Assembly (NCBI GenBank): GCA_937911795.1
Contig: CALDPJ010000025.1
Location: forward strand, 1 to 36,414
Origin: an uncultured Flavobacteriales bacterium
GTDB taxonomy: Bacteria; Bacteroidota; Bacteroidia; Flavobacteriales_D; SKUL01
Direction: 5' to 3'
Length of the DNA stretch: 36,414 nucleotides
Position numbers and translations under genes: made by a program. Positions within the stretch are counted from its first letter, which is position 1, and each line of letters starts with the position of its first letter. Under the pieces are notes generated by a model, which saw only the letters and a list, made by a program, of their open reading frames with translations, did no database searches and had not been told where the DNA came from. This document shows, piece after piece, positions 20,194-36,414 of the stretch.

Positions 20194-20280
20194 GATTTTT
20201 ATGAACATAAATACCAATGGTACCAAAACAAGCAAATTTACTTGTCTGACGAAAGAGACCCATCGTCCTGAAAACTCTAA

Positions 20281-20288
20281 TAGCTTTG
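20281..20288 (+). promoter_or_regulatory. Sigma-A type -7 box (TAGCTTTG) for the FG-GAP cargo gene
   Basis: A perfect TAnnTTTG octamer lies 33 nt upstream of the ATG at 20321. This argues against the ORF-track start at 20201. Confidence 0.4.
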
Positions 20289-20320
20289 GAATGTCTACCT
20301 TTAACCACTTATATATGGTC

Positions 20321-22624
20321 ATGAAATTTCCGATTCCTTTTCTGTTGGTGTTTCTGTTAAACACCCCGATTCTCCTCGCTCAGTTTTATGCAACACACAG
20401 CAATGACATTCCGGTTTATCATAATGGCAGTGCAATGGCCAACCCATGGGCCGGAGGAATCAATGCCGGCCAGATTTCTACGATTGATGTCAATCAGGAT
20501 GGTTTGGAGGATGTATTCATATTCGACCGGGCCGGCAACAAACCGATGATTTTTCTGAACAACAACAGCAACGATCCCAATTCTTTTGAATACAGTTTTG
20601 AATACAGTCAGCAGTTTCCGTCGATGCGAAACTGGGCGCTGTTGCGCGATTTTAATTGTGACGGCAAAAAAGACATTTTCACCTATAATGGAATCGGTGG
20701 ATTCAGGATTTACGAGAACATTTCTGCCACCGGTGCTGAATTGGAATTCACGGAAATCGAAAGCAATCTACAGTCGCTGTACAATTTCCCCTCCTCCTCC
20801 TATTACTCCAATATTTTCATCAGTTCGGTGGATATTCCGGCGGTGGATGATCTGGATGGCGACGGCGATCTCGATATAATTGTCTACTCCGTATCGGGCG
20901 TGCTGGTAGAGTATCACAAAAATTTTTCGGTAGAAGAAACCGGATCCTGTGATTCATTGATGTTTGTCCTCGGAAACCGATGCTACGGATTCTTTTCTGA
21001 AAGCGCCTTCGATAATTCGATCTCACTGCACGATGAAGCCATGCACAACGCATTGTGTCCGACGGGTTACAATGTCGCCGACCCCACTCCCATCATTGAG
21101 CGGCCGGATGATATAGAATACATTGAAACTACCACAGGCCCCAGACATTCAGGAACCACCATTCTGACAATTGAAATGACCCAGCAGTTGCCGAAGGAAA
21201 TTGTCCTGGGCGATATCAGTCATTATAATTTAACCGCCCTTACCAATTCGAGTACTGCTGAAGGAATGGATACAATAATTGCTTTCGATCCTGCATTTCC
21301 TTCGAACCACACCAATTCCGAGGCTGTTGATTTAATTGCTTTTCCAGCCTCCTATTACGAAGACATGAACAACGATGGAATCCGCGATTTAATTGTCAGC
21401 CCAAATAACGAATGGGCTTCGGAGAACACATCCAGTGTGTGGTATTATCAAAACCAAGGTTTAGACGATCAACCGGATTTTGTGTTGCAGCAAAAAGATC
21501 TTTTTCAACAGGAAATGATCGATGTTGGTGAAGGAGCAACGGCTTTTTTTATGGATTACAATGCAGACGGACTGCAGGATCTCATCGTCGGCAACAAAGG
21601 ATACTTCGTCAGTCCGGGTGTATATGAATCGAAGCTCGCTTTGTATGAAAATACCGGCTCGGCACAGAACCCGGAATTTACTTTTATTACAGATGATTTC
21701 GCAGATCTGGCGGCATTGAATCTCGGCCAGGCACTGCATCCCGCTTTCGGCGACATCGATAATGACGGAGATACAGATATGTTAATAGGAACATCATCGG
21801 GTAGGATTTACCGCTTCAACAATATCGCCGGACCGGGAAGTGAGGTGAGCTTTGTTCCTGCCGAAGATTCCATTCTGAAGGATGTGGATGGAAACGAAGT
21901 GGATCCCGGGCAATTCTCTACTCCGCAACTTATTGACCTTAACGGTAATGGATTATTGGATCTGGTAATGGGAGAGCGGAATGGAAAAATTCATCTTTAC
22001 GAAAACGTCGGAACAGCAGAGAACCCGTCTTTTGAACTGACCAATGATTTTCTCGGTAATGTTGAAACTGCAGAAGGTTTTTCAACCACAGGCTATAGCG
22101 TTATTCAGTTTTTCGATATGGATGGAGAGCGATATTTGATGACTGGTGCCGAATCGGGCAAAATACGATTGTACAGCAACATCACCAACAATCTTGATGG
22201 AGCTTTTAACCTGGAAGAAAACGAATTGTTCGGGCTGCGCAACGGCATCCGGAGTACGGTGGTCGTAACCGACATTAACAATGATGAGTTTCCGGATCTG
22301 TTCACCGGAAATTTTAGTGGAGGATTATTGTTTTTTAAGGGGGGCGAACCGACAGCAGTCGAATCGTATTTCAGTTCCGAGCCCACTTTTAATGTTTTCC
22401 CGAATCCTGCTGCTTCAGATATATCCGTATCAGTAAACCAAAAGATTTCAGGCAAAAAATACAGGCTCATTCTGTATAATGCTTTGGGAAAAATTATTCT
22501 CGAAAAAACTTTAGACGGCTCCACGAATAATATTGCTGTGGATCATCTTTCAGCAGGCATTTATATGGTACAACTGAAGGATGATGAAATACCGCTTGGA
22601 ATAAGACGGCTTGTGATTCGATAA
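20321..22624 (+). CDS. FG-GAP/VCBS repeat protein with T9SS type A C-terminal sorting domain
   Basis: Signal peptide MKFPIPFLLVFLLNTPILLAQ. Repeated FG-GAP-like calcium-binding motifs follow (DVNQDGLEDVF, DLDGDGDLDII, DMNNDGIRDLI, DYNADGLQDLI, DIDNDGDTDML, DLNGNGLLDLV, DINNDEFPDLF). The C-terminus FNVFPNPAASDISV...AGIYMVQLKDD...RLVIR is the Por_Secre_tail pattern. Confidence 0.8.
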   Translation: MKFPIPFLLVFLLNTPILLAQFYATHSNDIPVYHNGSAMANPWAGGINAGQISTIDVNQDGLEDVFIFDRAGNKPMIFLNNNSNDPNSFEYSFEYSQQFPSMRNWALLRDFNCDGKKDIFTYNGIGGFRIYENISATGAELEFTEIESNLQSLYNFPSSSYYSNIFISSVDIPAVDDLDGDGDLDIIVYSVSGVLVEYHKNFSVEETGSCDSLMFVLGNRCYGFFSESAFDNSISLHDEAMHNALCPTGYNVADPTPIIERPDDIEYIETTTGPRHSGTTILTIEMTQQLPKEIVLGDISHYNLTALTNSSTAEGMDTIIAFDPAFPSNHTNSEAVDLIAFPASYYEDMNNDGIRDLIVSPNNEWASENTSSVWYYQNQGLDDQPDFVLQQKDLFQQEMIDVGEGATAFFMDYNADGLQDLIVGNKGYFVSPGVYESKLALYENTGSAQNPEFTFITDDFADLAALNLGQALHPAFGDIDNDGDTDMLIGTSSGRIYRFNNIAGPGSEVSFVPAEDSILKDVDGNEVDPGQFSTPQLIDLNGNGLLDLVMGERNGKIHLYENVGTAENPSFELTNDFLGNVETAEGFSTTGYSVIQFFDMDGERYLMTGAESGKIRLYSNITNNLDGAFNLEENELFGLRNGIRSTVVVTDINNDEFPDLFTGNFSGGLLFFKGGEPTAVESYFSSEPTFNVFPNPAASDISVSVNQKISGKKYRLILYNALGKIILEKTLDGSTNNIAVDHLSAGIYMVQLKDDEIPLGIRRLVIR

Positions 22625-22675: not shown

Positions 22676-23614
22676 TCAGCTGATCAATTCCATTTTATCA
22701 AGCGCATCCATTACTTCTTTAACCGACTGTGCAGAGTTGTGCAGCAATTCCTGTTCCTCGTGGTTCAGGTCAAGCTCAATGATTTGTTCGATACCATTTC
22801 TGCCAAGTTTCACGGGCACGCCGAGATAAATATCGCTCAGGCCATATTCACCCTGCAGCCATGCGCAAACCGGAAAAATCCGTTTCTGATCGCGGACAAT
22901 GGCCTCGACCATTTGCGCTGCAGCAGCTCCCGGTGCGTACCATGCCGAAGTTCCCAGTAAATTAACAATCTCCCCTCCACCTTTTTTCGTGCGATCAACA
23001 ATGGCGTCAAGAGTAGGTTTGTCGATCAGTTCGGTAACCGGAATTCCACCCACGGTTGTATATCGCGGAAGCGGAACCATTGTATCTCCATGGCCACCCA
23101 TCAATACTGCCTGAATATCTTTTGGAGATACATCCAGTGCCAGTGCCAGGAAGGATCGGTACCGGGCAGTATCAAGAATTCCGGCCATACCGAACACGCG
23201 GCTCGAATCAACCTTTGCGGTGAGATAGGCCGCATAGGTCATGACATCTAAAGGATTTGAAACCACAATGATCTTGGCATCCGGTGAATGTTCAATAACT
23301 TTCTCGGTTACCATTTTAACAATCGCCGCATTTGTAGCAATCAAATCATCGCGGCTCATACCCGGCTTTCGCGGCAAACCGCTGGTAATTACCACCACAT
23401 CAGAACCTGCTGTTCTACCATAATCGTTGGTTACTCCTGTAGTTCGTGTGTCGTATTGATTGATAGGTGCCGTTTCCCAGATGTCCAACGCCTTACCTTC
23501 GGCAAATCCTTCTTTGATATCCAGTAATACTACCTCATTGGCCAGTTCTTTATGGGCTATAACATTGGCACAGGTTGCGCCAACATTTCCGGCTCCTACA
23601 ACGGTAATTTTCAT
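22676..23614 (-). CDS. mdh: Malate dehydrogenase (LDH-like, NAD-dependent)
   Basis: MKITVVGAGNVGATCA is the Rossmann motif, with GLPRKPGMSRDDL and MGGHGDTMVP further on. I chose the ATG at 23614. The ORF-track 5' extension overlaps promoter elements. Confidence 0.9.
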   Translation of the reverse strand: MKITVVGAGNVGATCANVIAHKELANEVVLLDIKEGFAEGKALDIWETAPINQYDTRTTGVTNDYGRTAGSDVVVITSGLPRKPGMSRDDLIATNAAIVKMVTEKVIEHSPDAKIIVVSNPLDVMTYAAYLTAKVDSSRVFGMAGILDTARYRSFLALALDVSPKDIQAVLMGGHGDTMVPLPRYTTVGGIPVTELIDKPTLDAIVDRTKKGGGEIVNLLGTSAWYAPGAAAAQMVEAIVRDQKRIFPVCAWLQGEYGLSDIYLGVPVKLGRNGIEQIIELDLNHEEQELLHNSAQSVKEVMDALDKMELIS

Positions 23615-23655
23615 GATGATTGCGATTTTTAAGATTGTTGCTTTAAATTGTGCAA

Positions 23656-23663
23656 CAAAAATA
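23656..23663 (-). promoter_or_regulatory. Sigma-A type -7 box (TATTTTTG) for mdh
   Basis: A perfect TAnnTTTG octamer lies 42 nt upstream of the mdh ATG. It is overlapped by a 7-bp inverted repeat, TTGTTGC-N10-GCAACAA (23635-23658). Confidence 0.4.
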
Positions 23664-23793
23664 ACAGTTAAAAACAATATGAGCCATCAGAAACAAAGCA
23701 GCGCTACGGCTTTATTTCGTTATGAGACAGCACGAATCTTATTAAAATACAGTACACATACAAATAAAATGCGACCCGTGAACATTTAATGAA

Positions 23794-23801
23794 TATTTTT
23801 G
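23794..23801 (+). promoter_or_regulatory. Sigma-A type -7 box (TATTTTTG) upstream of the ECF sigma gene
   Basis: A perfect TAnnTTTG octamer lies 35 nt upstream of the ATG at 23836. It directly abuts the ECF-like -35 element. Confidence 0.35.
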
Positions 23802-23804
23802 GTG

Positions 23805-23829
23805 GCAACCAACTCAGCAATTTCGCGTC
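23805..23829 (+). promoter_or_regulatory. ECF-type promoter GCAAC-N16-CGTC (putative autoregulatory promoter of the sigma/anti-sigma operon)
   Basis: GCAAC is at 23805-23809, followed by a 16-nt spacer and CGTC at 23826-23829. The same architecture occurs at 25819-25843 and 30716-30740. The -10 element ends 6 nt before the ATG. Confidence 0.5.
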
Positions 23830-23835
23830 TTTCGG

Positions 23836-24450
23836 ATGCAGGATAAAGAAAACATAGAACTACAAAAACTACAGAATCTTGTAAAAGGCTGTATTCAAGA
23901 TGACAGAAAATGTCAGCGCCTTTTATATGAAATGTTCTACGGAAAGATGATGGGTGTTTGCTTGCGGTACGCAAACGATGCTGATCAGGCGAAGGACATT
24001 CTGCAGGATGGATTCATTAAAGTATTTCGCAATCTTGAGCGATATAATTTTAGCGGATCTTTTGAAGGGTGGATCCGAAGAATAATGGTCAATACGGCCA
24101 TTGATTATTTTAGGAAACACCGTAGTTCGCACGTTCTTTTATTACGGGATGAACAAGCTATTGAAGAATTTGAAGAAGATTCTGAAGAAGCCGAATTTGA
24201 ATTGAATCCGATTGATGAGCCGGAGTTTACCATGGAGGATGTAATTGCAGCCATGCAACAACTTTCACCGGCTTATCGGGCAGTATTTAACCTATTTGTG
24301 ATGGAAAACAGATCGCATCAGGATATTGCCGAGGAACTCAATATCAGCGTTGGCACCTCCAAATCCAATTTCTCAAAAGCAAAAGCGAACATCCGTAAAA
24401 TGCTGTTAAACAAAACAATAAGCAAAACTAACGCAACCGATAAGAAATGA
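23836..24450 (+). CDS. ECF (sigma-70 family group 4) RNA polymerase sigma factor
   Basis: The 204-aa product has region 2 (DADQAKDILQDGFIKVFRNLERYNFSGSFEGWIRRIMVNTAIDYFRK) and region 4 (LSPAYRAVFNLFVMENRSHQDIAEELNISVGTSKSNFSKAKANIRKML). Confidence 0.9.
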   Translation: MQDKENIELQKLQNLVKGCIQDDRKCQRLLYEMFYGKMMGVCLRYANDADQAKDILQDGFIKVFRNLERYNFSGSFEGWIRRIMVNTAIDYFRKHRSSHVLLLRDEQAIEEFEEDSEEAEFELNPIDEPEFTMEDVIAAMQQLSPAYRAVFNLFVMENRSHQDIAEELNISVGTSKSNFSKAKANIRKMLLNKTISKTNATDKK

Positions 24451-25691
24451 GTGACAACCAACAACAATTCGAGGACCTGATCCGGCGAACGCTTGAGGAT
24501 TTCGAGGTTGATTTCAATCCGTGTCATTGGCAGGAAATGGAATCCCGGCTCAACCTGCTCGGTCAGGGCGTTGCGGTTTCTATGAACACCTTTTACGGAG
24601 CCTTTGTTGCCGCCGGAATTTTTATGGCCGGCCTTATTTATTTCGGACTACCAGATGATCATACAGGTGGTTTTGCTGAGCAAGAACAAATTACAGAATT
24701 ACAAGCTCCGGGTAATCCAACCGGCTCTGAAACAATAGTTGCAGGTGATTCACCTGAAAAGGAAACGGTAAGTACAGATACATTTATCATGGATGTACCA
24801 CATAATTCCATCGAGAAATTTGTAGAATCACCAGGTATTTCGAATAGCGTTGATACGGATAACGAAAAGGCAAATTCCGAAAGCCCAAAAGTTGAATACG
24901 GAGAGATGACGGTCAAAAAAATCAGGTCCAGTGTTTCTCAAGGCTGTGAAGGAGCGCCGATCACGTTCTCGACTTCTGGCAGTGAATCTGAAGGAAATTT
25001 CCTATGGAACTTTGGCGATGGCTATTTCTCCAACAACCAGAACCCTGTTCACGTCTTTGATGCACCAGGCATTTTTGATGTTTCTTTGCTGGTTACCCCA
25101 CTAACAGGTGGAAAACTCACCCCGATGACGATCGAAGATCAGATAAAAATCAATCCACGACCCAAAGCTTCCTTTGACTACACGTATAAACAGAATCCTC
25201 TCGATATACCCCAGGTCAAGTTTGAGAGTCACTCCAAAAACGTAGATCAGGTAATGTGGGTGGTTAATGGGGAAGTATTCTCTGAGGAAAACGCACCGGT
25301 TCAGAATTTCACCAAAAAAGGAACCTACGATGTACAACTGGTGGCCATCAATGAATACGGTTGTGCAGATACCACCAGCAGAAAAGTGACCATTAAAGAA
25401 GATTACAACCTGTTGTCACCGTCATCCTTTTCGCCGGACGGAGACCACCGCGAAGACACGTTTATACCGGGAGCTCTCAAATTGATAGAAGGAACTTTCG
25501 TGATGCGTGTAATGGATCCGAGTACTAATATGGTAATTTTCGAAACGACAGAAGCAAACAAACCCTGGGACGGTACGATTGCCGGTACCACGGTAAAAGC
25601 TTCGGCAGGAGATTATCAATGGGAAGCGACGATAGAATATACCAACGGAAGAACCGATCATTTTACCGGGCAGATTAATCTCACCAAATAA
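24447..25691 (+). CDS. Putative membrane-anchored anti-sigma factor with two PKD-like domains and a degenerate T9SS type B (CHU_C-like) C-terminal domain
   Basis: An ATGA start/stop overlap couples it to the sigma gene. It has a ~46-aa cytoplasmic N-terminus and one TM helix (FYGAFVAAGIFMAGLIYFGL). A low-complexity linker follows, then the PKD motif FLWNFGDGYFSNNQNPVHVFDAPGIFDVSL and a second Ig/PKD-like module. The C-terminal tail PSSFSPDGDHREDTFIP...WDGT... parallels the CTDs of both adhesins. Confidence 0.6.
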   Translation: MSDNQQQFEDLIRRTLEDFEVDFNPCHWQEMESRLNLLGQGVAVSMNTFYGAFVAAGIFMAGLIYFGLPDDHTGGFAEQEQITELQAPGNPTGSETIVAGDSPEKETVSTDTFIMDVPHNSIEKFVESPGISNSVDTDNEKANSESPKVEYGEMTVKKIRSSVSQGCEGAPITFSTSGSESEGNFLWNFGDGYFSNNQNPVHVFDAPGIFDVSLLVTPLTGGKLTPMTIEDQIKINPRPKASFDYTYKQNPLDIPQVKFESHSKNVDQVMWVVNGEVFSEENAPVQNFTKKGTYDVQLVAINEYGCADTTSRKVTIKEDYNLLSPSSFSPDGDHREDTFIPGALKLIEGTFVMRVMDPSTNMVIFETTEANKPWDGTIAGTTVKASAGDYQWEATIEYTNGRTDHFTGQINLTK

Positions 25692-25718
25692 TATTAACCC
25701 TTACTGAGTAAACATCGA

Positions 25719-25752
25719 AAGGCGCTCTACAAGGAGCGCTTTTCTTTTTTTT
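25719..25752 (+). terminator. Rho-independent terminator of the sigma/anti-sigma operon
   Basis: The stem GCGCTC-tacaag-GAGCGC (25722-25739) is followed by TTTTCTTTTTTTTG. Confidence 0.7.
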
Positions 25753-25818
25753 GTCTAATTGAATTCCTTTGAAATAACACTTCTCGCTAATGGATTCTTG
25801 TTGCTCACCTTCAAATGT

Positions 25819-25843
25819 GCAACCACTGCTCAGGATTTCCGTC
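25819..25843 (+). promoter_or_regulatory. ECF-type promoter GCAAC-N16-CGTC upstream of adhesin 1
   Basis: GCAAC is at 25819-25823, followed by a 16-nt spacer and CGTC at 25840-25843. The spacer also shares CTCAG and ATTTC with the sigma-gene promoter. Confidence 0.5.
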
Positions 25844-25875
25844 AACTGAAACAACAGGAAAACGCTAACTTTACA

Positions 25876-25900
25876 GGAACTTTAATTCACCTGTTCCGTA
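25876..25900 (+). promoter_or_regulatory. Second ECF-like element GGAAC-N16-CGTA, proximal to adhesin 1
   Basis: GGAAC is at 25876-25880, followed by a 16-nt spacer and CGTA at 25897-25900, 25 nt before the GTG start. TAACTTTA precedes it. Confidence 0.3.
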
Positions 25901-25924
25901 GACAGTTCCACTTAAACACCAACA

Positions 25925-28900
25925 GTGATTCGATTCATATTACTTTTCGTAATTCTCACCTTTTATTCTGGCAATATTCTGTCGGCACAATGTGCCCAGG
26001 GATCCTATACCTTGAATCCGCCACCGGTAAACGGACAATATGAATCGGGGCAAACAGTTCAAATATGTCTGCAATTTAATTATTCACAAACCAGCGTAGA
26101 CTGGGTACATGGAATCGTACCGATTATTCCTGAAGGTTGGGATGTATCGTCTATAAATGTTACACCGCCACCTTCTTGCAGCGGCAGTGGGACATGGGGT
26201 TGGTATCAAAGTGTAACCAGCTCAGCAAATGGAAACACTTATGGGCCGGGATTATTTTACGACCAATATAATGATGGTAATCCTGGAAATAACTTTGGTG
26301 ATAACCTATCGTATTGCGGTTACAATTTATCCTTTTGCATGACAATAACTACCGCCGACTGCAACGGTGATGACCTGGATGGTGCCAATCTGAATCTTCA
26401 GTTTCAAATTTTGGGCGATAATTTTTCTGGTAGCTGGGGTTCTGGCGGAAACAGTTGTCCCCCTGGTCAAAATACCATAATGCCGGGCCCTGGCCAGAAT
26501 ACTACCCTTAGCTGTTGCTCGGGAGAAGAGGCTTTCCTGGAAATTTGCAGTTCATCTCCCAATCAAATTTTATTCAACTCTTTTTCATCATCTCCGGCCG
26601 GAGGTACCTGGACCAATCCATCGGGAGGTGCATTCAACGGAACATTTATTCCCGGCACCAGCCCGGATGGCATCTATTCGTATAGTTTTGACGACGGTGA
26701 TTGCGCTGCGGTATCCACGGTAGAAGTCACTACCATTCCTGAACCCGATGCAGGAACCGGTGAAAACATTACCATATGCGAAGGTGCCGATGCTTTCAAT
26801 TTGGGAGATCAAATAATCGGCGGCGATGCGGGCGGCACATGGACCGGACCGGGAAATATTCCTGTTTCTGATGTATTCACTCCGGGAGTCTCAGCACCGG
26901 GGTTATACACCTATACTGTAGGAGACGGTATTGATTGTCCAACCAGTCAGACGGTAGTGAACATTAGTGTTGAACCGAATCCGTTCGCAGGAGACGATGG
27001 TTCGCTCACGGTTTGCGAAAGCGACCCGCAGATCAATCTGTTCAATTTCCTGATGAACGGACCCGAAAGTGGTGGTACCTGGACCGATCCATCCGGCGGA
27101 TCACACGACGGATTATTGTCGCCGTCAACCGATGAACCCGGAAACTACACTTATTCTATCGGAGATCCTCCATGCAGCTCATCGGCCACCGTTTCGGTTA
27201 CCATTGTTGAACTTCCTTATGCCGGTCAGGACATTTCAATATCGCTTTGTCCGGATGACGCGCCGGTAGATTTGTTCAATGTAATTCCTGGCGCCAACGC
27301 CGGCGGATTTTGGGCTGATCCGGATAACGCCGGCTTTAGCGGAATATTTTCGCCTGGATCAGATCAACCCGGAGATTATGTTTATCAGATCGGTGGAGCA
27401 GCCTGCAACGACGTAGCCGTTGTTACCGTTGTAATTCCCGATCTGCCAACCGGATTCATCAGCGCAGATGCTACCTATTGTGAAGGCAGCAATTTCCCGA
27501 TCACATTTAATCTCACCGGAAACGGACCCTTTGATATTGAGTACGGCATCAACGGAAATGATTATACTTTAAATGGTATTTCTGACGGACATTCTGAAAT
27601 GGTCAGTTCAACCGGTGATGCAGAAATTGAATTGATTTCCATCACCGGTTCAGATCCCGGAGCCTGCCCGAACAGCGGAAACACAATTGAGGTAGAAATG
27701 ATCCCTACTCCGTCAGCGCAGATCGTCGGTGGTGGAGGTATCTGTGAGGGTGCCGATGGAACCTTGACTTTTGAATTGACCGGAAGTGGTCCATTCGACA
27801 TTGTTTATACCGATGGATCTCAGAATTTTTCACTAAACGGAATTTCTAACGGTCACGTGGAAACCGTGAATCCTACCGAAAACCCCACCTATACGCTTAT
27901 TAGTGTGGCCGACAATTCTCTTTCCTCCTGTGATGGCAACGTCAGCGGGAGTGCAAGCTTTGCGGTAAACGAAGCGCCAGCCGGTAGCATTTCGGGAAGT
28001 GCCAATATTTGTATTGGAGAATCCACAGAATTAACTTTTGAACTGGAAGGCACCGGTCCGTTTGATGTTGTGTACACCGACGGAGCCAATAACTTCAGTT
28101 TGACGGGAATCAACGATGGACACACCATTTCAGTTTCCCCTCAGTTTCTGTCATTTTATGAGCTGGTATCGGTCACCAGCCAGGGAAATCCAAACTGTCC
28201 GGGCATTACGAGCGGAAATGTAATAATTACGGTTTCTGTGCCTCCGGTGTACTACAACCTAAATGTTACCTGCAACAATGTGAATGAAGCCTATACGGTT
28301 TCCTTTCACATCAACGGTGGAGACCCCGGCAGCTATCAGGTCGAAGGAGATTCCGGTGAAATAACCGGCAATGTATTTACGAGCGATGAAATTCCGAGTG
28401 GCAGCTCCTACACCTTTCTTCTGGATGATGGAAATGGTTGCGGACCTGTAGAGATTTCGGGAGATCACACCTGTGATTGCACTACAAGTGCCGGCACCAT
28501 GCAGGTGGAAGATTTGGTAGTGTGTTCATCAGAACTGGCCATTGCAACCCACAATAACGATGAAATTCTTGACCCCAATGATATATTGGTGTTTCTGCTC
28601 ACTGATTCACCATATTACTCGACAAGCACCATATTTATTGAAAATGATGAGCCGGAGTTCGAATTCCAGGATGATTTATTGGAGCTAAACACAACTTATT
28701 ATATTACAGGAGTTGCCAGTAATGACGCTGGAGGAACCTATGAGATTGGAGACCCATGCTGGTCTGTCACTTCCCAGGCAACTGTTACGTTTATTGAAAG
28801 TCCCACAGCCGGAATTTCCGGTTCTGGTGCAATTTGTCCGGGTGAAGTCGCAAGTCTTGACATCGCACTAAACGGATCAGCGCCCTGGACCGTGGAATAT

Positions 28901-30628
28901 GCAGTGGATGGAATTTCAACCGGCAATTTTATTTCCAACAACAACAATTATACGCTCGACGTCGACCAGGGCGGAAGCTATACATTACTGAATGTCACCG
29001 ATGCCTTATGCGCCGGAACAACGTCCGGTGAAGTAGTTGTAACAGAATTTGAAGTACCGACAGCAACGATATCCGGTGGAGGAAATATATGTGCCGGCAG
29101 CGGTGACGGACCGGAAGTGACGCTCACCGGCTCTGCACCATGGACGATCACATACACGGTTGATGGACAAAATCCGGAAACCATTATCATCAATAATTCT
29201 CCCCACACTATTGAAGCAACAACGTCGGGTAACTATGTAATTACCGGGGTAAGTGACAACAATTGCACAGGCGAAGGATTGGGAACAGCTGCGGTGACTA
29301 TCGTCGAACCTCCTACTGCCGGAGTAAGTGGTGGTGGTCAGATTTGCGACGGTGACACCGGTGAAATCACCTTCAACGGAACCGGAAACGGAGACGTTCA
29401 GATAATGTACGCCATAAATGGAGTTACGGAAGGCACCGTAAATCTTATCAATGGATCTGCAACACTCCAAACCAGCGAACCCGGCACCTACAGCATTGTA
29501 CAGGTTGAAGATGATTTCTGTAGCGGTAGCGGTAATGGCACTACGGCAGAACTCATCGTAAATCCTATTCCTACTGCGGACATAAATCTTAATCCTTCGA
29601 CATTATGCGAAGGAGATTCGGCTTTGCTTAGTATCACCTTCACCGGCAACGGGCCCTTCGGTGTAGTGTACAGCATTGGTGGAGAAATGATCATTGCAGA
29701 CAACACTTCCAATATTCATCAATATGTTTTCCCGGAAAACGGACAGGAATTTGCGTTGATTTCGGTATCCGACAATTCTAATCCTTCCTGCGGACAAAAC
29801 CTGGTCGAATCGGTAACAGCTCAGGTATTGATTACTCCCGAAGCTCCGGTTCTCACCGATATTTTCCGTTGCAACAACGACACCTTCCCTCAAATTGGTG
29901 TAGAACCATTGCCGAACCTTAATTATTCGTGGTCTCCCCAGGCGGGCTTGAGCAATCCGAATATTTCCAATCCTGTATTAAACCTGGAAAACAACACGGA
30001 TCAGGAACAAACTTATACCTTTATCCTGACTGCTCATAACGGGATCTGCGGTGTACAGAGCAGTATGGAAGTGACCATCAATCCCGGACCTCAGGTGGAC
30101 TTTAGTTATAATCCGAAACCTGTTTCAACCGAAGCGACTACTGTAAATTTCCTGAACCACACGCCGGGCATCAACGATTATGAGTGGTTGGTAAATGAAA
30201 TCAGTGTTTCTACGAACACCAATATACACTATACTTTTCCCGATGGTATTGAGGGGAATTATAATGTTACATTGATTGCAACTGATACTGAAACCGGCTG
30301 CACCAACCAGCACGCACAACTTGTGGAAGTAAAGGGTGAGCTGATGGTTTACGTACCCAATGCCTTCACTCCCGATGGTGACGGGATCAATGAATTGTTT
30401 GGCCCCGTGGTTAGAAACCATCTGGAGGGTCAATATGATTTTTCAATTTTCAACCGGCAAGGGGAACTCGTATTCAATTCCAGTTCTCCAGATTTGAAAT
30501 GGGATGGCAGCGAATCTGGTCAGGATTATTTTGCGAAGGATGGTGTTTATATCTGGCTGTTGAAAATCGGAGACATCTACAGCTCCGAAATCAGGGAATA
30601 TCAAGGAACTGTGACAATTGTGCGGTAA
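25925..30628 (+). CDS. Giant modular cell-surface protein (1567 aa) with T9SS type B sorting domain (gliding-motility-associated C-terminal domain)
   Basis: GTG start and signal peptide MIRFILLFVILTFYSGNILSAQ. A Cys-rich N-terminal domain is followed by 4 + 7 Ig-like repeat modules and a PKD-like module. The C-terminus LMVYVPNAFTPDGDGINELF...LKWDGSESGQ...VYIWLLK is the CHU_C / type B CTD pattern. Confidence 0.85.
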   Translation: MIRFILLFVILTFYSGNILSAQCAQGSYTLNPPPVNGQYESGQTVQICLQFNYSQTSVDWVHGIVPIIPEGWDVSSINVTPPPSCSGSGTWGWYQSVTSSANGNTYGPGLFYDQYNDGNPGNNFGDNLSYCGYNLSFCMTITTADCNGDDLDGANLNLQFQILGDNFSGSWGSGGNSCPPGQNTIMPGPGQNTTLSCCSGEEAFLEICSSSPNQILFNSFSSSPAGGTWTNPSGGAFNGTFIPGTSPDGIYSYSFDDGDCAAVSTVEVTTIPEPDAGTGENITICEGADAFNLGDQIIGGDAGGTWTGPGNIPVSDVFTPGVSAPGLYTYTVGDGIDCPTSQTVVNISVEPNPFAGDDGSLTVCESDPQINLFNFLMNGPESGGTWTDPSGGSHDGLLSPSTDEPGNYTYSIGDPPCSSSATVSVTIVELPYAGQDISISLCPDDAPVDLFNVIPGANAGGFWADPDNAGFSGIFSPGSDQPGDYVYQIGGAACNDVAVVTVVIPDLPTGFISADATYCEGSNFPITFNLTGNGPFDIEYGINGNDYTLNGISDGHSEMVSSTGDAEIELISITGSDPGACPNSGNTIEVEMIPTPSAQIVGGGGICEGADGTLTFELTGSGPFDIVYTDGSQNFSLNGISNGHVETVNPTENPTYTLISVADNSLSSCDGNVSGSASFAVNEAPAGSISGSANICIGESTELTFELEGTGPFDVVYTDGANNFSLTGINDGHTISVSPQFLSFYELVSVTSQGNPNCPGITSGNVIITVSVPPVYYNLNVTCNNVNEAYTVSFHINGGDPGSYQVEGDSGEITGNVFTSDEIPSGSSYTFLLDDGNGCGPVEISGDHTCDCTTSAGTMQVEDLVVCSSELAIATHNNDEILDPNDILVFLLTDSPYYSTSTIFIENDEPEFEFQDDLLELNTTYYITGVASNDAGGTYEIGDPCWSVTSQATVTFIESPTAGISGSGAICPGEVASLDIALNGSAPWTVEYAVDGISTGNFISNNNNYTLDVDQGGSYTLLNVTDALCAGTTSGEVVVTEFEVPTATISGGGNICAGSGDGPEVTLTGSAPWTITYTVDGQNPETIIINNSPHTIEATTSGNYVITGVSDNNCTGEGLGTAAVTIVEPPTAGVSGGGQICDGDTGEITFNGTGNGDVQIMYAINGVTEGTVNLINGSATLQTSEPGTYSIVQVEDDFCSGSGNGTTAELIVNPIPTADINLNPSTLCEGDSALLSITFTGNGPFGVVYSIGGEMIIADNTSNIHQYVFPENGQEFALISVSDNSNPSCGQNLVESVTAQVLITPEAPVLTDIFRCNNDTFPQIGVEPLPNLNYSWSPQAGLSNPNISNPVLNLENNTDQEQTYTFILTAHNGICGVQSSMEVTINPGPQVDFSYNPKPVSTEATTVNFLNHTPGINDYEWLVNEISVSTNTNIHYTFPDGIEGNYNVTLIATDTETGCTNQHAQLVEVKGELMVYVPNAFTPDGDGINELFGPVVRNHLEGQYDFSIFNRQGELVFNSSSPDLKWDGSESGQDYFAKDGVYIWLLKIGDIYSSEIREYQGTVTIVR
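26510..27439 (+). repeat. Four tandem ~77-aa coding repeats (GGTWT-type Ig-like modules) inside adhesin 1
   Basis: The repeated pattern is P-x-(D/F)AG-x-(D/N)-x5-C-...-GG(T/F)W(T/A)-x-P-...-F(T/I/S)PG-...-G-x-Y-x-Y-...-C. The DNA copies are diverged, with short shared stretches such as GGTACCTGGACCnATCCATC. Confidence 0.75.
27446..28240 (+). repeat. Three tandem ~88-aa coding repeats (ICxG...LTFxLTGxGPFD(I/V)xY-type modules) inside adhesin 1
   Basis: The modules start at PTGFISADATYCEG, PTPSAQIVGGGGICEG and APAGSISGSANICIG. Each contains G(N/S/T)GPFD(I/V)xY and NG(I)xDGH. Confidence 0.75.
28799..29833 (+). repeat. Four further tandem ~86-aa repeats of the same module family, separated from the first three by a unique ~185-aa insert
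   Basis: The modules start at SPTAGISGSGAICPG, VPTATISGGGNICAG, PPTAGVSGGGQICDG and PIPTADINLNPSTLCEG. They carry the GSAPWT(V/I)xY / GNGPFGVVY cores. Confidence 0.75.
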
Positions 30629-30705
30629 CGCGCTTTCCGGCGTTTAGCATTCACATAATTCGCCGTTCCAGTAGATCGTGCAATTCTACAGTTGAGAATT
30701 ACCTT

Positions 30706-30713
30706 TATCTTTG
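30706..30713 (+). promoter_or_regulatory. Sigma-A type -7 box (TATCTTTG) upstream of the small ORF / adhesin 2 unit
   Basis: A perfect TAnnTTTG octamer lies 54 nt upstream of the ATG at 30767. It abuts the ECF-like -35 element. Confidence 0.35.
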
Positions 30714-30715
30714 GG

Positions 30716-30740
30716 GCAACATTAAATTTATATCGCCGTC
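30716..30740 (+). promoter_or_regulatory. ECF-type promoter GCAAC-N16-CGTC upstream of the small ORF / adhesin 2 unit
   Basis: GCAAC is at 30716-30720, followed by a 16-nt spacer and CGTC at 30737-30740, 27 nt before the ATG at 30767. Confidence 0.5.
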
Positions 30741-30766
30741 ATAATAAGGTAATCAAAGAATAAAAA

Positions 30767-31186
30767 ATGCACGTTTTACTCAAACTTCTACTATCACTGT
30801 TTCTCAGTTTTTCTTTCTGTCCATTACTAAACGCTCAGGATGCGCTGATTGATAGATTCGGTTCAGAGGCCATCAATTCCATTCAGGGCACAGAAAAGTT
30901 GGCCATTCTGGAATTCCAGAATTTGCATGGTTATGCGGTGCAGGATCTGAATGGCCTAAAGGATATCTCTGAATATCCGGATGCACTCGAAATTCAGGCC
31001 GTCAACGGAAATGGACCATTGCTAAGCGAAACCTCACTAACATCAGGCAATTTTGAGCTTTTCTCTTATTCTTTTCCTGTAAGTGGAACTAAAAACAATT
31101 ATTACCGAATTGGTAATACGGGGAGGTTGCTGATAATCTACAGCACAAATAATGTTAGAAAATTATATAATCAACAGGATAATTAA
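30767..31186 (+). CDS. Small secreted hypothetical protein (139 aa)
   Basis: It has the signal peptide MHVLLKLLLSLFLSFSFCPLLNAQ and no recognisable family motifs. The gap to adhesin 2 is 51 nt with no terminator, so the two are probably co-transcribed. Confidence 0.55.
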   Translation: MHVLLKLLLSLFLSFSFCPLLNAQDALIDRFGSEAINSIQGTEKLAILEFQNLHGYAVQDLNGLKDISEYPDALEIQAVNGNGPLLSETSLTSGNFELFSYSFPVSGTKNNYYRIGNTGRLLIIYSTNNVRKLYNQQDN

Positions 31187-31237
31187 CGATAAAACAATGG
31201 ATAATTACATCTTTTGCTCTAACTCACACTCTGGTAA

Positions 31238-34200
31238 ATGAAAAAATCCACTCTAGTTCATATCGCTTTTATCTTTATTGCGCTATTTATTTTTACACCA
31301 ATCTTTGGTCAACAACAGATAAATATGCAGACCGGATATTTTGAACAATGTTCCGGCGGCTTCCTCGATAGCGGTGGCGGTGGCGGTGCATATCAGAATA
31401 ATGAAAATTTTACGCTAACAATCTGCCCTGATAATCCCGGGGATGTAATTGGTATTGATTTTCTCACATTCACCCTTGATCCAACAAATACGGCATCCGG
31501 CAATAACAATAATCAGGATCGGTTGATAATTTATGACGGTAATAGTACAGCAGCGGCATCGATGGGTACGTTCACCGGAAATTCACTGCAAGGAATATTT
31601 GTTTCTGCATCGCCACTTAATACTTCCGGCTGTTTAACAATACGATTTATTTCAAATGATGTAGGCACGGGTAACTGGGCTGGAACAATTACTTGTGAAA
31701 CCCCGTGCGACCGACCAACAGCAGTTGGGACAGACAACGCTCCGGCTAATCGCCGTATTTGCATTGGAGAAGAAGTAACTTTCGACGGATCCGGCTCAAC
31801 AGCTGCGCCTGGATTTAACATTGACACCTATTTGTGGGATTTTGGTGATGGTACCACTGCCGACTCTCCGGTGGTCACACATTCCTGGAATGAACCCGGG
31901 GAATATCTGGTAGAATTGTATCTGGTAGATGACAACGGGTGTTCCAGTACGAATCAAATTAGTTTGCAAATAATGGTAGAGACGCTTCCTGACTGGGATC
32001 CGTTTGTAGGAGACGAAACTATATGTTTAGGCCAGACCATTAATTGGGACATAGATCCGAACGAATTTGAGGTAACCTGGATTGGGGCTGAACCGACTGT
32101 ATCTGTTTCGATAGAAGATGGTCTGGCTGACGTTGTGGGGCAATGCTATGAATTTCCTTTGGTGATTAGTGGTTTTGGTCCGGGTCAGACGCTTGATGAT
32201 GTATACTCCCTGCTGTCCATAGATCTGGGAATATATCATACTTTTCTGTTTGATCTTCTCATTCAGATCACCTGCCCATCCGGGCAAACGGTAGTTTTGC
32301 ATCAGCAAATGCAGCAGCCCAATGGCCCGGATGTGTGGGCGAACGGAACAGATTTTGGGATGCCCGGAAACATGGAATGCTGGAATTACAGTTGGACACC
32401 TCAAGCCACACAAACCATTTCCCAAATTGCGACACAGGCTGGAAATGATCCTTTGCCAGTGGATGACTATATGGCACTGCAACCATTATCGGATTTGGTA
32501 GGATGCGATCTGAACGGAACATGGACCATTAGTGTTTGTGATCTCTGGGGCGGTGATTCAGGCTACCTGTGCGACTGGGGATTGTCCATAGATCCTTCAA
32601 TTATCCCAGATGTAACTGAATTCACAACAACTATTGGACAAGAAAGTGACAGTTCTTATTGGGCGGGACCTTCATTTGGAGAAGTCTCGGCAGATGGAAA
32701 TTCAATCTCGATTGTACCCGACGCAGTTGGAGAATTTGAATTTACCTACACCATTATAAACAATCATGGCTGTACACACGACTCTACCGTAACAATTACT
32801 GTAGTCCCTGGTCCCGAAGCAGATGCCGGTGACGATCTCGTTATTTGCGAAGACTCGCTTCAACTAAATGGGTCGGTGGCAGGAACTCCTCCTCCACCAC
32901 CAAATTGCGAGTATGTTTTGGATATGGTTGATACATTCGGTGATGGATGGAATGGGTTTTCTGTTACTATTATTCAGGATGGTATTGTTGTCGGTACCTA
33001 TACCATTCCTTCTGGAGGGACATTAAATACTGTATCAATTCCTCTGAATCATGGCTCGGACATACAAATAAATACGAGCAGCGGCAACTGGGATAGTGAA
33101 GTCGCTTATTATTTGTACAACCCTGCCGGGGAGGAAGTTTTTTCTGACGAAGGCACGAATACTTCAGGTACACCGATTCAGATCGGCAACAACATATGGA
33201 GCGGAGTAGTCGATTGTCAGCCTGGAACTCCGGATTATGTTTTTGAATGGAGTCCGGTAGATGGGTTGTCAGATCCGAATATCCAGAACCCGATGGTGAT
33301 GGTAAACCAGAATACGACTTATACAATGACTGTCTGGATTGACGGTTCCCCAGAATGTGCAACCACTGACGAAGTGGAGGTTACCATTCCACCCGAAGCC
33401 GATCCGGGCCAGGATAACGAACTCACGCTGTGCTACAATTCGCCTACATTTAACCTACTGGACTCTCTTCTCGGTAATCCAACGGATGCCGGAGAATGGA
33501 CCGACGAGGGCGGCAATGTAGTGGGATCAACCTTTTCTCCTGCTGACCATGCTGACGGCGGCACCTTCTCTTTTACTTATACCGTGACGTTTGGCCCTTG
33601 CGTAAAATCTGCAGAACTCATTATCACAGTCCTGGAAGCGGGCCATGAAGATTGTTGTCAGACTTCCGCGGATGCTGGTCCCGATGGTATTGCCTGTGAC
33701 CTCAATTGGGAACTCAGCGCCGGTCCTGTAGTTGGAACCGGATCCTGGAGCGGACCTCCGGAGGTGACATTCGACAACATCAACGACCCAAATACAACGG
33801 TAACGGCTCAATCTCCGGGAGGAGTTATTGAATTGTTCTGGACCGATTCCAACGGTCTGCTTTGTGAGGAAACAGATATGGTGCAGGTTGTGTTTATGGA
33901 TCCTGTTGAAGTCGAATTCCTGACTATTCCAGCAACATGTCCGGACACCTGTGATGCTATCGTGATGGCTCAACCCTCCGGCGGACTTGGTGAATTCACT
34001 TATAACTGGAATGCCGGACTGGCAGGCGCTACACCCGACGAAAGAATTTCCCTGTGTCCCGGAGAAGTAACTGTTGAAATCGAAGATGAATACGGATGTC
34101 AGACATCTCTTGCCACACAGGTTACTGAATCGCCTGCTCCGGCTATCAATGCGATTAATGTAACGGATGTATCCTGCAATGGGATGTGCGATGGAAGCAT

Positions 34201-34918
34201 TGTTATCTCAGCACCCGATGCCGTGAGCTATAGTTTTGACGCAGGAAATACATTCGGTACCAGCCATATGCTCGACAGTCTTTGTGCCGGTTCTTTCGGT
34301 ATCGAAATTCGAAATGAATTAAACTGCCCGAATTTCCAAACGGTAACGGTGACTGAACCGCCAAAACTCAAGGCTGAATTCAGTATGAACCCCTCACCTG
34401 TTGACTGGACCAATACCACTGTTCAGTTCAACAACTTGTCTTACCCCGGTCCTTTTACCAGCACTTACTGGGTTTTTGACACGTTGAATTTTCTGGGAAC
34501 ATCCACTGAACAACAACCTTCTTTTACATTTCCAAATACCGACGCAGGAATTTACCCGGTGTCGTTGTGTGTGGAGAATGAAGCCGGTTGTACAGCCTGT
34601 ACTTCCTATGATCTGGTCGTTAATAAAACACTCTCGCTGTTTGTTCCGAATAGTTTTACCCCCAACGAAGATGGTATCAATGACCTGTTTAAAGCATACC
34701 TGAGTACAGAGCATTACAGCAACTACCGCATGCGCATATTTAACCGTTATGGAGAGCTGGTGTATGAGTCAAATGATCCGGAAGTTGGCTGGAACGGCGG
34801 AGAAGATTCCGGCACCTATTATGCCCGCGACGAAGTTTATGTAGTTGAGATTCAAGTGACGGATGATATTACTAATGAAGTTATTGAACACACCGGCCAC
34901 TTAACAATACTTCGATAA
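31238..34918 (+). CDS. Giant modular cell-surface protein (1226 aa): CUB-like + PKD + proprotein-convertase P-domain + GDGWNG module + SprB repeats + T9SS type B sorting domain
   Basis: Signal peptide, then a CUB-like pattern (CSGGF...TLTICPDNPGDVIGIDFLTF...DRLIIYDG...GTFTG...TIRFISND...GNWAGTITC). PKD motif: YLWDFGDGTTADSPVVTHSWNEPGEYLVEL. P-domain: IYHTFLFDLLIQITCPSGQTVVLH...LNGTWTISVCDLWGGDSGYLCDWGLSI. SprB-like repeats: CPDTCDAIV...GEFTYNWN and CNGMCDGSI. CTD: LSLFVPNSFTPNEDGINDLF...VGWNGGEDSG. Confidence 0.85.
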   Translation: MKKSTLVHIAFIFIALFIFTPIFGQQQINMQTGYFEQCSGGFLDSGGGGGAYQNNENFTLTICPDNPGDVIGIDFLTFTLDPTNTASGNNNNQDRLIIYDGNSTAAASMGTFTGNSLQGIFVSASPLNTSGCLTIRFISNDVGTGNWAGTITCETPCDRPTAVGTDNAPANRRICIGEEVTFDGSGSTAAPGFNIDTYLWDFGDGTTADSPVVTHSWNEPGEYLVELYLVDDNGCSSTNQISLQIMVETLPDWDPFVGDETICLGQTINWDIDPNEFEVTWIGAEPTVSVSIEDGLADVVGQCYEFPLVISGFGPGQTLDDVYSLLSIDLGIYHTFLFDLLIQITCPSGQTVVLHQQMQQPNGPDVWANGTDFGMPGNMECWNYSWTPQATQTISQIATQAGNDPLPVDDYMALQPLSDLVGCDLNGTWTISVCDLWGGDSGYLCDWGLSIDPSIIPDVTEFTTTIGQESDSSYWAGPSFGEVSADGNSISIVPDAVGEFEFTYTIINNHGCTHDSTVTITVVPGPEADAGDDLVICEDSLQLNGSVAGTPPPPPNCEYVLDMVDTFGDGWNGFSVTIIQDGIVVGTYTIPSGGTLNTVSIPLNHGSDIQINTSSGNWDSEVAYYLYNPAGEEVFSDEGTNTSGTPIQIGNNIWSGVVDCQPGTPDYVFEWSPVDGLSDPNIQNPMVMVNQNTTYTMTVWIDGSPECATTDEVEVTIPPEADPGQDNELTLCYNSPTFNLLDSLLGNPTDAGEWTDEGGNVVGSTFSPADHADGGTFSFTYTVTFGPCVKSAELIITVLEAGHEDCCQTSADAGPDGIACDLNWELSAGPVVGTGSWSGPPEVTFDNINDPNTTVTAQSPGGVIELFWTDSNGLLCEETDMVQVVFMDPVEVEFLTIPATCPDTCDAIVMAQPSGGLGEFTYNWNAGLAGATPDERISLCPGEVTVEIEDEYGCQTSLATQVTESPAPAINAINVTDVSCNGMCDGSIVISAPDAVSYSFDAGNTFGTSHMLDSLCAGSFGIEIRNELNCPNFQTVTVTEPPKLKAEFSMNPSPVDWTNTTVQFNNLSYPGPFTSTYWVFDTLNFLGTSTEQQPSFTFPNTDAGIYPVSLCVENEAGCTACTSYDLVVNKTLSLFVPNSFTPNEDGINDLFKAYLSTEHYSNYRMRIFNRYGELVYESNDPEVGWNGGEDSGTYYARDEVYVVEIQVTDDITNEVIEHTGHLTILR

Positions 34919-34946
34919 ATTTTAAAGAATCAGGATAATTTCAGAA

Positions 34947-34976
34947 TAAAAAAAGGGCGCAAATTGCGCCCTTTTT
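34947..34976. terminator. Bidirectional rho-independent terminator between the convergent adhesin 2 and gyrB
   Basis: AAAAAAA-GGGCGCA-aat-TGCGCCC-TTTTTT is a perfect 7-bp GC-rich stem flanked by A and T runs. Confidence 0.8.
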
Positions 34977-34999
34977 TGTTGAATATTCTTCTGATTTAA

Positions 35000-36414
<1,415 letters not shown>

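Follow-up and report, generated by a model that had tools for sequence, protein, structure and literature searches.

Positions 23794–34918 of a 36,414-nt contig from an uncultured Flavobacteriales bacterium (CALDPJ010000025.1 of assembly GCA_937911795.1; the whole contig is referred to here as the window) probably hold, with a likelihood that we put at roughly 70%, an extracytoplasmic function (ECF) sigma/anti-sigma signalling module together with its local targets, three promoter-like sequences (sites 1, 2 and 3) serving as its promoters. We propose that the sigma factor encoded at 23836–24450 reads promoters of the form [A/T]GGCAACC-N15-CGT[C/T][T/A], of which a perfect copy (23803–23831) would drive its own operon in positive autoregulation, probably as a leaderless mRNA, and two weaker copies (25817–25845 and 30714–30742) would drive two units encoding giant type-B type IX secretion system (T9SS) surface proteins, with a housekeeping sigma-A −7 box beside sites 1 and 3 giving basal expression. 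A co-translated partner of 414 amino acids (aa) would keep the sigma factor at the inner membrane via a short, conserved cytoplasmic N-terminus, and its periplasmic part would be made up of a flexible tether of ~90 residues, two PKD domains and a type-B T9SS sorting domain. Autoregulation through site 1 is well supported, and the drive of the two adjacent type-B units through sites 2 and 3 moderately well supported. Four elements of this proposal come from sequence comparison: a conserved promoter consensus, the retained positions of sites 2 and 3, the domain composition of the partner, and a family-wide association with PorP/SprF and type-B cargo genes.

A preliminary description of this DNA, made from the letters alone, had proposed that the same promoter, GCAAC-N16-CGTC, precedes the sigma operon and both adhesin units of a self-contained ECF regulon. 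A pattern search of the window recovered the three exact copies where that description had placed them (23805–23829, 25819–25843 and 30716–30740, all on the plus strand), and its gene calls (sigma factor, membrane partner, two T9SS adhesins and a small open reading frame, ORF) held. The −10-like CGTC ends 6 nt before the sigma start codon (ATG at 23836) at site 1, 81 nt before the GTG start of adhesin 1 (25925) at site 2, and 26 nt before the ATG of the small ORF (30767) at site 3. That these sites are unlikely by chance was also borne out, since the window holds four exact matches against 0.21 expected and none of 100 dinucleotide-preserving shuffles gave four.

The sigma factor (204 aa, plus strand) has the ECF (group IV) layout, with only a sigma-2 and a sigma-4 domain in ~200 aa: Pfam Sigma70_r2 at residues 30–96 (3.4e-17) and Sigma70_r4_2 at residues 134–184 (5.7e-14), with TIGR02937 at 97 bits (cutoff 42.9). 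Its nearest solved relative is Bacillus subtilis SigW, and no specific NCBIfam equivalog reached its cutoff, sigma_PG0214 scoring 68.7 bits against 130. The family is very large in Bacteroidota, with at least 7872 proteins at E ≤ 1e-10 among 8000 candidates scored. We compared 164 related loci, whose sigma factors are 43–100% identical to that of the window; 80 came from species-representative genomes and 80 from metagenomes, and further loci of closer relatives were added through exact-protein look-up. The analysis covered 36 kb of the source genome and, in the relatives, up to 10 kb to either side.

Immediately upstream of the sigma gene, CAAC-N16-CGT was present in 121 of the 164 loci, and the exact nine-base pattern GCAAC-N16-CGTC in about 37 of the first 80 genome loci. 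The consensus from 108 non-identical sites was [A/T]GGCAACC-N15-CGT[C/T][T/A][T/A], in which conservation extended to positions outside the search pattern: the G before CAAC stood in all 108 sites, the G preceding it in 100 and the C after CAAC in 99, and only T or A followed CGT[C/T]. No conservation was seen in the 15-nt spacer. Invariant elements around a free spacer are the footprint that one expects, in an alignment of this kind, of a bipartite sigma-binding site, in keeping with the earlier assignment of these sequences as ECF-type promoters. Site 1 (23803–23831, plus strand; TGGCAACC-N15-CGTCTT, 24.9 bits) is almost certainly the autoregulatory promoter of the sigma factor, conserved across the sigma family. 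Because its −10 element ends only 4–6 nt before the sigma start codon in the window and in the relatives L081, L082, L084 and L085, the sigma/anti-sigma mRNA of this clade is probably leaderless; in more distant relatives the sigma leaders reach roughly 140 nt.

Directly abutting site 1 lies a TAnnTTTG box (23794–23801, plus strand; TATTTTTG), the sequence of the Bacteroidota sigma-A −7 element, which spans −12 to −5 (PMC9723704). The box is kept as TATTTTTG or TAAATTTG in the close relatives L081, L082, L084 and L085 and is probably a basal promoter. A second sigma-A-type −7 box (TATCTTTG; 30706–30713, plus strand) abuts site 3 and is invariant in the window and in loci L165 and L168. Since sites 1 and 3 both abut conserved TAnnTTTG boxes, the units behind them are probably expressed from tandem basal (sigma-A) and inducible (ECF) promoters rather than under ECF control alone. 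The preliminary description had placed boxes of this type next to all three units; they were found at sites 1 and 3, and none was seen in the window sequence before adhesin 1.

A position weight matrix was next derived from 108 independent sites upstream of sigma genes, all in genomes other than that of the window, and applied to the window itself. On both strands together, exactly four matches reached 7 bits, of which three, lying on the coding strand in consecutive intergenic regions, were sites 1, 2 (25817–25845; GTGCAACC-N15-CGTCAA, 12.8 bits) and 3 (30714–30742; GGGCAACA-N15-CGTCAT, 14.9 bits). First-order Markov simulations of the window gave an expectation of 0.40 matches of at least 12.5 bits, and from this background rate the joint chance of matches in the two upstream regions concerned (234 and 139 nt) was ~1e-6, for a threshold of 12.5 bits that was picked post hoc, after the data had been seen. 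The fourth matrix match (6944–6972, minus strand; AGGCAACG-N15-CGTTAT, 16.3 bits) falls within the 3′ end of a DUF2851 gene, 17 kb from the cluster and ~80 nt upstream of an uncalled small PspC-like ORF (6862–6638, minus strand; 74 aa, with a weak PspC match of 23.1 bits against a cutoff of 25), and may be either an extra member of the regulon or a chance match. The fourth exact copy of GCAAC-N16-CGTC, absent from the preliminary description, is a different one (21464–21488, minus strand). It reads cTGCAACA...CGTCTA, with both departures from the extended consensus in one site; its score is under 7 bits and its location antisense within an FG-GAP/Por_Secre_tail gene, and on these grounds it was rejected as a promoter and is probably a chance match.

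Between the partner gene and adhesin 1 we identified a terminator-like hairpin (25717–25744, plus strand) with a 12-bp stem containing 6 GC pairs, followed by the T-run TTTTTTTTGT. Because this terminator would cut adhesin 1 off from the sigma operon, and because of the missing TAnnTTTG box, adhesin 1 appears to need a promoter of its own, for which site 2 is the candidate. An Rfam scan of 23000–35200 returned no RNA family, which means that the 81-nt leader of adhesin 1 matches no described riboswitch or leader type. Adhesin 1 (25925–30628, plus strand; 1567 aa) consists of Ig-like repeats of the POM152 type (Ig-like_POM152, 1.2e-45) and a type-B T9SS sorting domain of the CHU_C family (47.6 bits; cutoff 27), with orthologues in L165, L168 and L081. 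The unit behind site 3, its candidate ECF promoter, begins with a small secreted ORF (30767–31186, plus strand; 139 aa) that has an N-terminal hydrophobic signal and no Pfam or NCBIfam match; homologues occur at the equivalent position in L165 and L168, and also in L021. Adhesin 2 follows (31238–34918, plus strand; 1226 aa), with PKD, a proprotein-convertase P-domain and a CHU_C type-B sorting domain (CHU_C, 55.2 bits; TIGR04131, 49.1 bits against a cutoff of 35). In both adhesins the sorting domain thus scores above its curated threshold, which classes them as type-B cargo.

Two loci on metagenomic contigs, L165 and L168, carry the same five-gene cluster as the window in the same order: the sigma factor, the partner, an Ig/CHU_C protein of ~1550 aa, a 141-aa ORF and a PKD/P-domain/CHU_C protein of ~1220 aa. 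Their partner proteins are ~52% identical to that of the window, and the L165 sigma factor is 67–70% identical. At site 3 the three clusters agree in the TATCTTTG box, in CAAC and CGTCAT and in the spacing to the ATG, and differ in the spacer. At site 2, L165 and L168 read ACAACT-N15-CGTCAA with unrelated spacers, so that CAAC and CGTCAA are retained; this comparison is a direct reading of the sequences, as MAFFT misplaced the window sequence. Because the core elements hold their position in L165 and L168 while the spacers diverge, it is very unlikely that sites 2 and 3 are chance matches, and their role as ECF promoters of the two cargo units is moderately well supported by these comparisons. 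Site 2 is also identical in L084 (99% identical). L082 (sigma 68% identical) encodes other giant surface proteins downstream, and the first of their genes is preceded by a tandem arrangement of ECF-like sites at 12100–12160, ACAACC-N15-CGTCTT followed by GCAACC-N15-CGTAAA; this gene codes for a 940-aa CUB/Choice_anch_L/Calx-beta surface protein in the place of adhesin 1.

The arrangement recurs across the sigma family. In a scan of ~2 Mb from 154 non-redundant loci, at a threshold of at least 12.5 bits, 113 matches were autoregulatory and 24 were not. Of these 24, eleven lie on the sigma strand, 1.2–2.7 kb downstream of the sigma start and so near the end of the partner gene. Genes for T9SS outer-membrane proteins of the PorP/SprF family stand behind such a second site in L036 (position 2921), L043 (11311), L105 (8610), L116 (11528) and L152 (11207), the sites being near-perfect at 25.5–26.1 bits, and CHU_C/SprB/PKD adhesin genes do so in L038 and L007. 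In these PorP/SprF loci, which belong to a sister branch, the genes of the sigma factor and of a short partner (220–330 aa) that lacks the C-terminal sorting domain (CTD) are directly followed by GGCAACC-N14/15-CGTCT[T/A] ahead of the PorP/SprF-family gene, and in L037, L121 and L137 the spacer of this second site is one base shorter. Since the matrix with its fixed spacer missed such PorP sites (one base shorter) and also adhesin sites (one base longer), we rescanned the loci with a spacer flexible by ±1 and a threshold of at least 9 bits. Sites found in this way precede 8 of the 12 downstream PorP/SprF genes (Fisher p = 6e-11) and 7 of the 32 downstream giant type-B CTD genes (p = 9e-6), compared with 24 of 1146 for other genes. 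In L016, L006, L014 and L021, moreover, the gene next after the sigma/partner pair encodes a full-length homologue of adhesin 2 (37–38% identical over ~1230 aa). Because both the enrichment and the adhesin-2 synteny recur across the family, the tie of this sigma factor to the type-B branch of T9SS is, on this comparative evidence, an old one, and the window layout with its terminator and internal ECF promoters is one variant of it.

A number of observations weigh against the proposal that all three sites are promoters of one module, and several of them would be accommodated by an alternative in which only site 1 works, sites 2 and 3 are look-alikes or decaying remnants, and the adhesins are expressed from sigma-A promoters (such as the TATCTTTG box) or by read-through. 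Site 2 has TGCAACC where GG stands in 100 of the 108 family sites, and site 3 has GGCAACA where C stands in 99, each thereby departing from a nearly invariant position; both have scores of roughly half that of site 1. At site 2 of L165 and L168, and at site 3 of L168, A replaces the otherwise invariant G, and the sites of these two loci score low, at 3.3–9.1 bits, with the fixed-spacer matrix. There is no recognisable site before the first adhesin in L081 and L167 (78% identical) or in L164 (77%), and site 2 of L166 reads GCAACC-N15-CGAA, that is, with a broken −10 element. Nonetheless, CAAC and CGTCA[A/T] stay in place in three orthologous clusters whose spacers have diverged, and two matches of at least 12.5 bits in precisely these upstream regions have the joint chance of ~1e-6 given above, both of which count against look-alikes. 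The conserved TAnnTTTG box that abuts site 3 could account for expression of the second unit by sigma-A; at adhesin 1, a terminator and the absence of a visible box instead speak for a separate promoter. Of the 32 adhesin genes downstream of family sigma factors, 25 are without a separate ECF site, and these adhesins may be co-transcribed with the sigma operon or lie outside the control of this sigma factor altogether. In many such loci only −3 to ~100 nt separate the partner gene from the next one, which suggests co-transcription of the adhesin from the autoregulated promoter, and the motif is enriched family-wide at the position after the sigma operon. Taken together, we consider it unlikely that site 1 alone is functional.

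The same observations limit how the earlier claims can be phrased. A single module driving the sigma factor and both adhesins accords with the position that sites 2 and 3 hold in L165 and L168 and with the recurrence of the motif after sigma operons, but to call the three sites the same promoter goes too far, given the deviations and scores of sites 2 and 3 (12.8 and 14.9 against 24.9 bits). The term self-contained likewise overstated the case, because of the additional 16.3-bit site at 6972 on the minus strand, because only 36 kb of the genome is visible, and because, among the 51 informative loci whose partner bears a CTD, only 18 encode a type-B CTD protein downstream. The ORFs of the 36-kb window include no PorP/SprF match, which is a further point on the unfavourable side.

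Sites 2 and 3 could also be genuine and yet be read by another ECF sigma factor that the genome encodes and whose AAC/CGT specificity overlaps, in which case the cluster would not be one regulon. Bacteroidota genomes encode ~22 ECF sigma factors on average (PMC7826278), and cross-recognition by others with AAC/CGT-type motifs, of which there are many in this phylum, is possible. In Flavobacterium psychrophilum, for instance, the SM6 promoters (GTAAC-N16-CGTA and ACAAC-N16-CGTT) are not assignable to a single ECF factor (PMC9723704). Sites 2 and 3 moreover share CGTCA[A/T], against CGTCTT at site 1. Their extended −35 element, (G/T)GCAAC(C/A), agrees on the other hand with the family-specific GGCAACC at six of seven positions, a second site stands directly after the sigma factor's own operon in several independent lineages, often as a perfect copy of the autoregulatory one, and adhesin-2-type genes are syntenic with the sigma/anti-sigma pair. 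We infer that all three sites are read by the adjacent sigma factor rather than by some other ECF, and regard recognition of sites 2 and 3 by a different factor as highly improbable.

The most unusual feature of the locus, missing from the preliminary description, is a probable T9SS type-B CTD on the sigma factor's own partner. The partner gene (24447–25691, plus strand; 414 aa), which encodes the putative anti-sigma factor, has a start codon that overlaps the sigma stop codon (ATGA), a start/stop overlap that is widespread among the family loci. The protein is laid out as a conserved cytoplasmic N-terminus of ~45 aa, a transmembrane (TM) helix at ~50–68, a tether at 67–156, two PKD domains (with a Pfam PKD_4 match) and a type-B CTD-like domain at ~320–414. 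Its last 95 residues align with the adhesin CTDs, sharing P..F[ST]P[DN]GDG.ND.F, W[DN]G and G.[IV].[LI].R, and BLASTP of the C-terminus against the CTD of adhesin 2 gave E = 5e-5. In the window partner itself this domain stays below the curated thresholds, TIGR04131 scoring 21.1 bits (2.5e-4) against a cutoff of 35 with no Pfam CHU_C match at E<0.01, a result that counts against the assignment; orthologues in L106 (43.4 bits), L007 (45.2) and L082 (27.1) exceed the Pfam CHU_C cutoff. A CTD-bearing partner is present in 86 of 158 non-redundant loci.

An AlphaFold2 model of the partner, built with 33 homologues, contains N-terminal helices, the hydrophobic segment at 50–68 and three beta-sandwich domains, the two PKD and the C-terminal one, with predicted local distance difference test (pLDDT) values mostly of 80–93. 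Residues 67–156 (window positions 24645–24914) are disordered in the model (pLDDT ~30) and poorly conserved. This stretch of ~90 residues could be a periplasm-spanning tether, for which by a rough estimate it would be long enough, or a site of regulated proteolysis. Foldseek of the model against the PDB returned only generic tandem Ig/PKD adhesins (GhpA, SiiE) and nothing specific for the CTD or the N-terminus, and a PDB sequence search with the partner matched its PKD domains only.

From the gene coupling and the co-conservation with the sigma factor we infer that the partner is an anti-sigma factor. It could otherwise be an ordinary type-B cargo protein co-transcribed with an orphan sigma factor, its hydrophobic segment being a signal sequence. 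PKD domains followed by a CTD are a layout typical of cargo, and homologues carry the public names "PKD repeat protein", "PKD domain-containing protein" or "gliding motility-associated-like protein" and never anti-sigma factor; the partner also has no anti-sigma Pfam domain, and its residues 1–70 have no Pfam or NCBIfam match, which is unfavourable to our assignment. The hydrophobic segment, however, starts only at about residue 50, behind a conserved helical N-terminus of ~45 aa, whereas the signal peptides of the adhesins are ~20 aa long. Short (220–330 aa) and long (400–470 aa) partners have in common the N-terminal motif FE..IK..LE.[FY]E.P[FY]N...W..ME..L followed by the TM helix. Because the short, CTD-less partners of the PorP/SprF loci carry both, the N-terminus co-varies with the sigma factor and not with the periplasmic domain. 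Together with the widespread start/stop overlap, this makes a mere cargo role for the 414-aa protein quite improbable, and we retain the anti-sigma assignment below.

In mechanistic terms this is a classical autoregulated ECF sigma/anti-sigma module. Like the RpoE/SigW-type pairs (SigW-RsiW of B. subtilis, RpoE-RseA of Escherichia coli), it has a two-domain sigma factor, a co-transcribed single-pass membrane partner, and a promoter whose −35 element contains AAC and whose −10 element contains CGT (with a 16-nt spacer in the counting of the preliminary description) that is also found before its own operon. It differs from them in that the cytoplasmic domain of the partner is only ~45 aa long and belongs to no anti-sigma Pfam family, in that the periplasmic sensor would be PKD-PKD-T9SS type-B CTD, and in that the local targets would be type-B cargo or PorP/SprF genes and not envelope repair functions.

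The nearest analogue is the PorA-PorXY-SigP pathway of Porphyromonas gingivalis, in which binding of the PorA CTD to the sensor kinase PorY, which takes place in the periplasm, switches on PorXY-SigP, even with PorA at the inner membrane (PMC7712824; PMC12152298). Both systems tie an ECF factor (SigP belongs to ECF228) to T9SS, and both would use a T9SS CTD as a periplasmic signalling element, as we propose here and as fits the activity retained by inner-membrane-tethered PorA (PMC12152298, PMC7712824, PMC4800418). SigP, in contrast, has no anti-sigma factor and is stabilised by, and dependent on, the response regulator PorX (PMC7826278), whereas the sigma factor of the window is co-translated with a membrane-bound partner; the target motif proposed for SigP is unrelated, and the targets of SigP are T9SS machinery genes. 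Here the CTD would be part of the sigma factor's membrane partner, and the cluster lacks a two-component system, no histidine kinase or response regulator having been found in it or in the other window ORFs scanned.

The SM6 promoters of F. psychrophilum resemble the sites described here in having xxAAC-N16-CGT at starts that were mapped experimentally, and they drive gldN, porU and an ECF/anti-sigma operon (PMC9723704). They combine GTAAC or ACAAC with CGTA or CGTT, as opposed to GGCAACC...CGTC here, the sigma/anti-sigma pair involved (THC0290_1774/1773) is much smaller (~169 and ~149 aa), and the targets are machinery and not type-B cargo. As for SprB/SprF-type pairs, adhesins 1 and 2 likewise carry CHU_C/TIGR04131, and the ECF promoter of the sister branch would drive a PorP/SprF gene; unlike these pairs, the window adhesins have no PorP/SprF gene beside them, and the sprB operon of F. 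psychrophilum has a sigma-54 and an SM5 promoter, not an ECF promoter (PMC9723704). Full-text searches of open-access papers and bioRxiv yielded no paper on an anti-sigma factor with a T9SS sorting domain, and none on an ECF regulon of type-B cargo or PorP/SprF genes.

What signal the partner would respond to is the most conjectural part of the scheme. PorP-like proteins are bound by type-B CTD proteins (PMC9143113), and our preferred guess is that the tethered sorting domain reports on the type-B pathway, that is, on a PorP/SprF-like receptor or the translocon, so that cargo synthesis would be tuned to secretion capacity; that this domain senses the state of type-B T9SS is speculative. As a tentative extension, which we hold to be possible and rather less than an even bet, the protein might be a secretion-coupled anti-sigma factor, whose tether would let the CTD reach the outer-membrane PorP/SprF-translocon complex, and which would thus constitute a widespread one-protein equivalent of PorA-PorY-PorX-SigP. 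Engagement by T9SS, competition with cargo, or proteolytic release and export of the PKD-CTD fragment would then set sigma activity.

Other genes of the window were noted in passing. A PorE-like protein (11328–13337, minus strand; 669 aa) has TPR, WD40-like (PD40), CarboxypepD_reg and OmpA domains, the four described for PorE, which is part of T9SS and in P. gingivalis is complexed with PorP and a type-B CTD protein; the region upstream of this gene is free of ECF motifs. The 807-aa FG-GAP repeat protein encoded at 20201–22624 (plus strand) has a type-A T9SS sorting domain (Por_Secre_tail). A synteny block of glnIII, an Na-Ca exchanger gene, tatA, secDF, the FG-GAP gene, mdh and the sigma gene is present in all close relatives (L081, L082 and L164–L170). 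At the left end of the window, one ORF (97–1035, minus strand) joins an EF-Tu-type GTP-binding domain (residues 9–181) to a FabA-like dehydratase domain (192–300). This odd combination may stem from a frameshift or an assembly join, or be a genuine chimera. A XerC/D-like tyrosine recombinase (1991–2875, minus strand; Phage_integrase with an N-terminal SAM-like domain) lies among housekeeping neighbours.

Control of T9SS cargo expression is poorly understood beyond P. gingivalis, above all for the type-B pathway of gliding adhesins such as SprB. The locus and its family offer a promoter consensus, a cognate sigma factor and a membrane partner whose sensor end would be a T9SS sorting signal, and hence a testable route by which secretion capacity could be coupled to the synthesis of giant adhesins or of PorP/SprF. 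Many proteins now annotated as "PKD repeat" or "gliding motility-associated" would be relabelled anti-sigma factors. If the secretion-coupled scheme is true, synthesis of type-B cargo or of its PorP/SprF receptor would be matched to T9SS capacity by a system that, going by its 86 of 158 sampled loci, would be widespread, and so far unannotated, in Flavobacteriales and related Bacteroidota.

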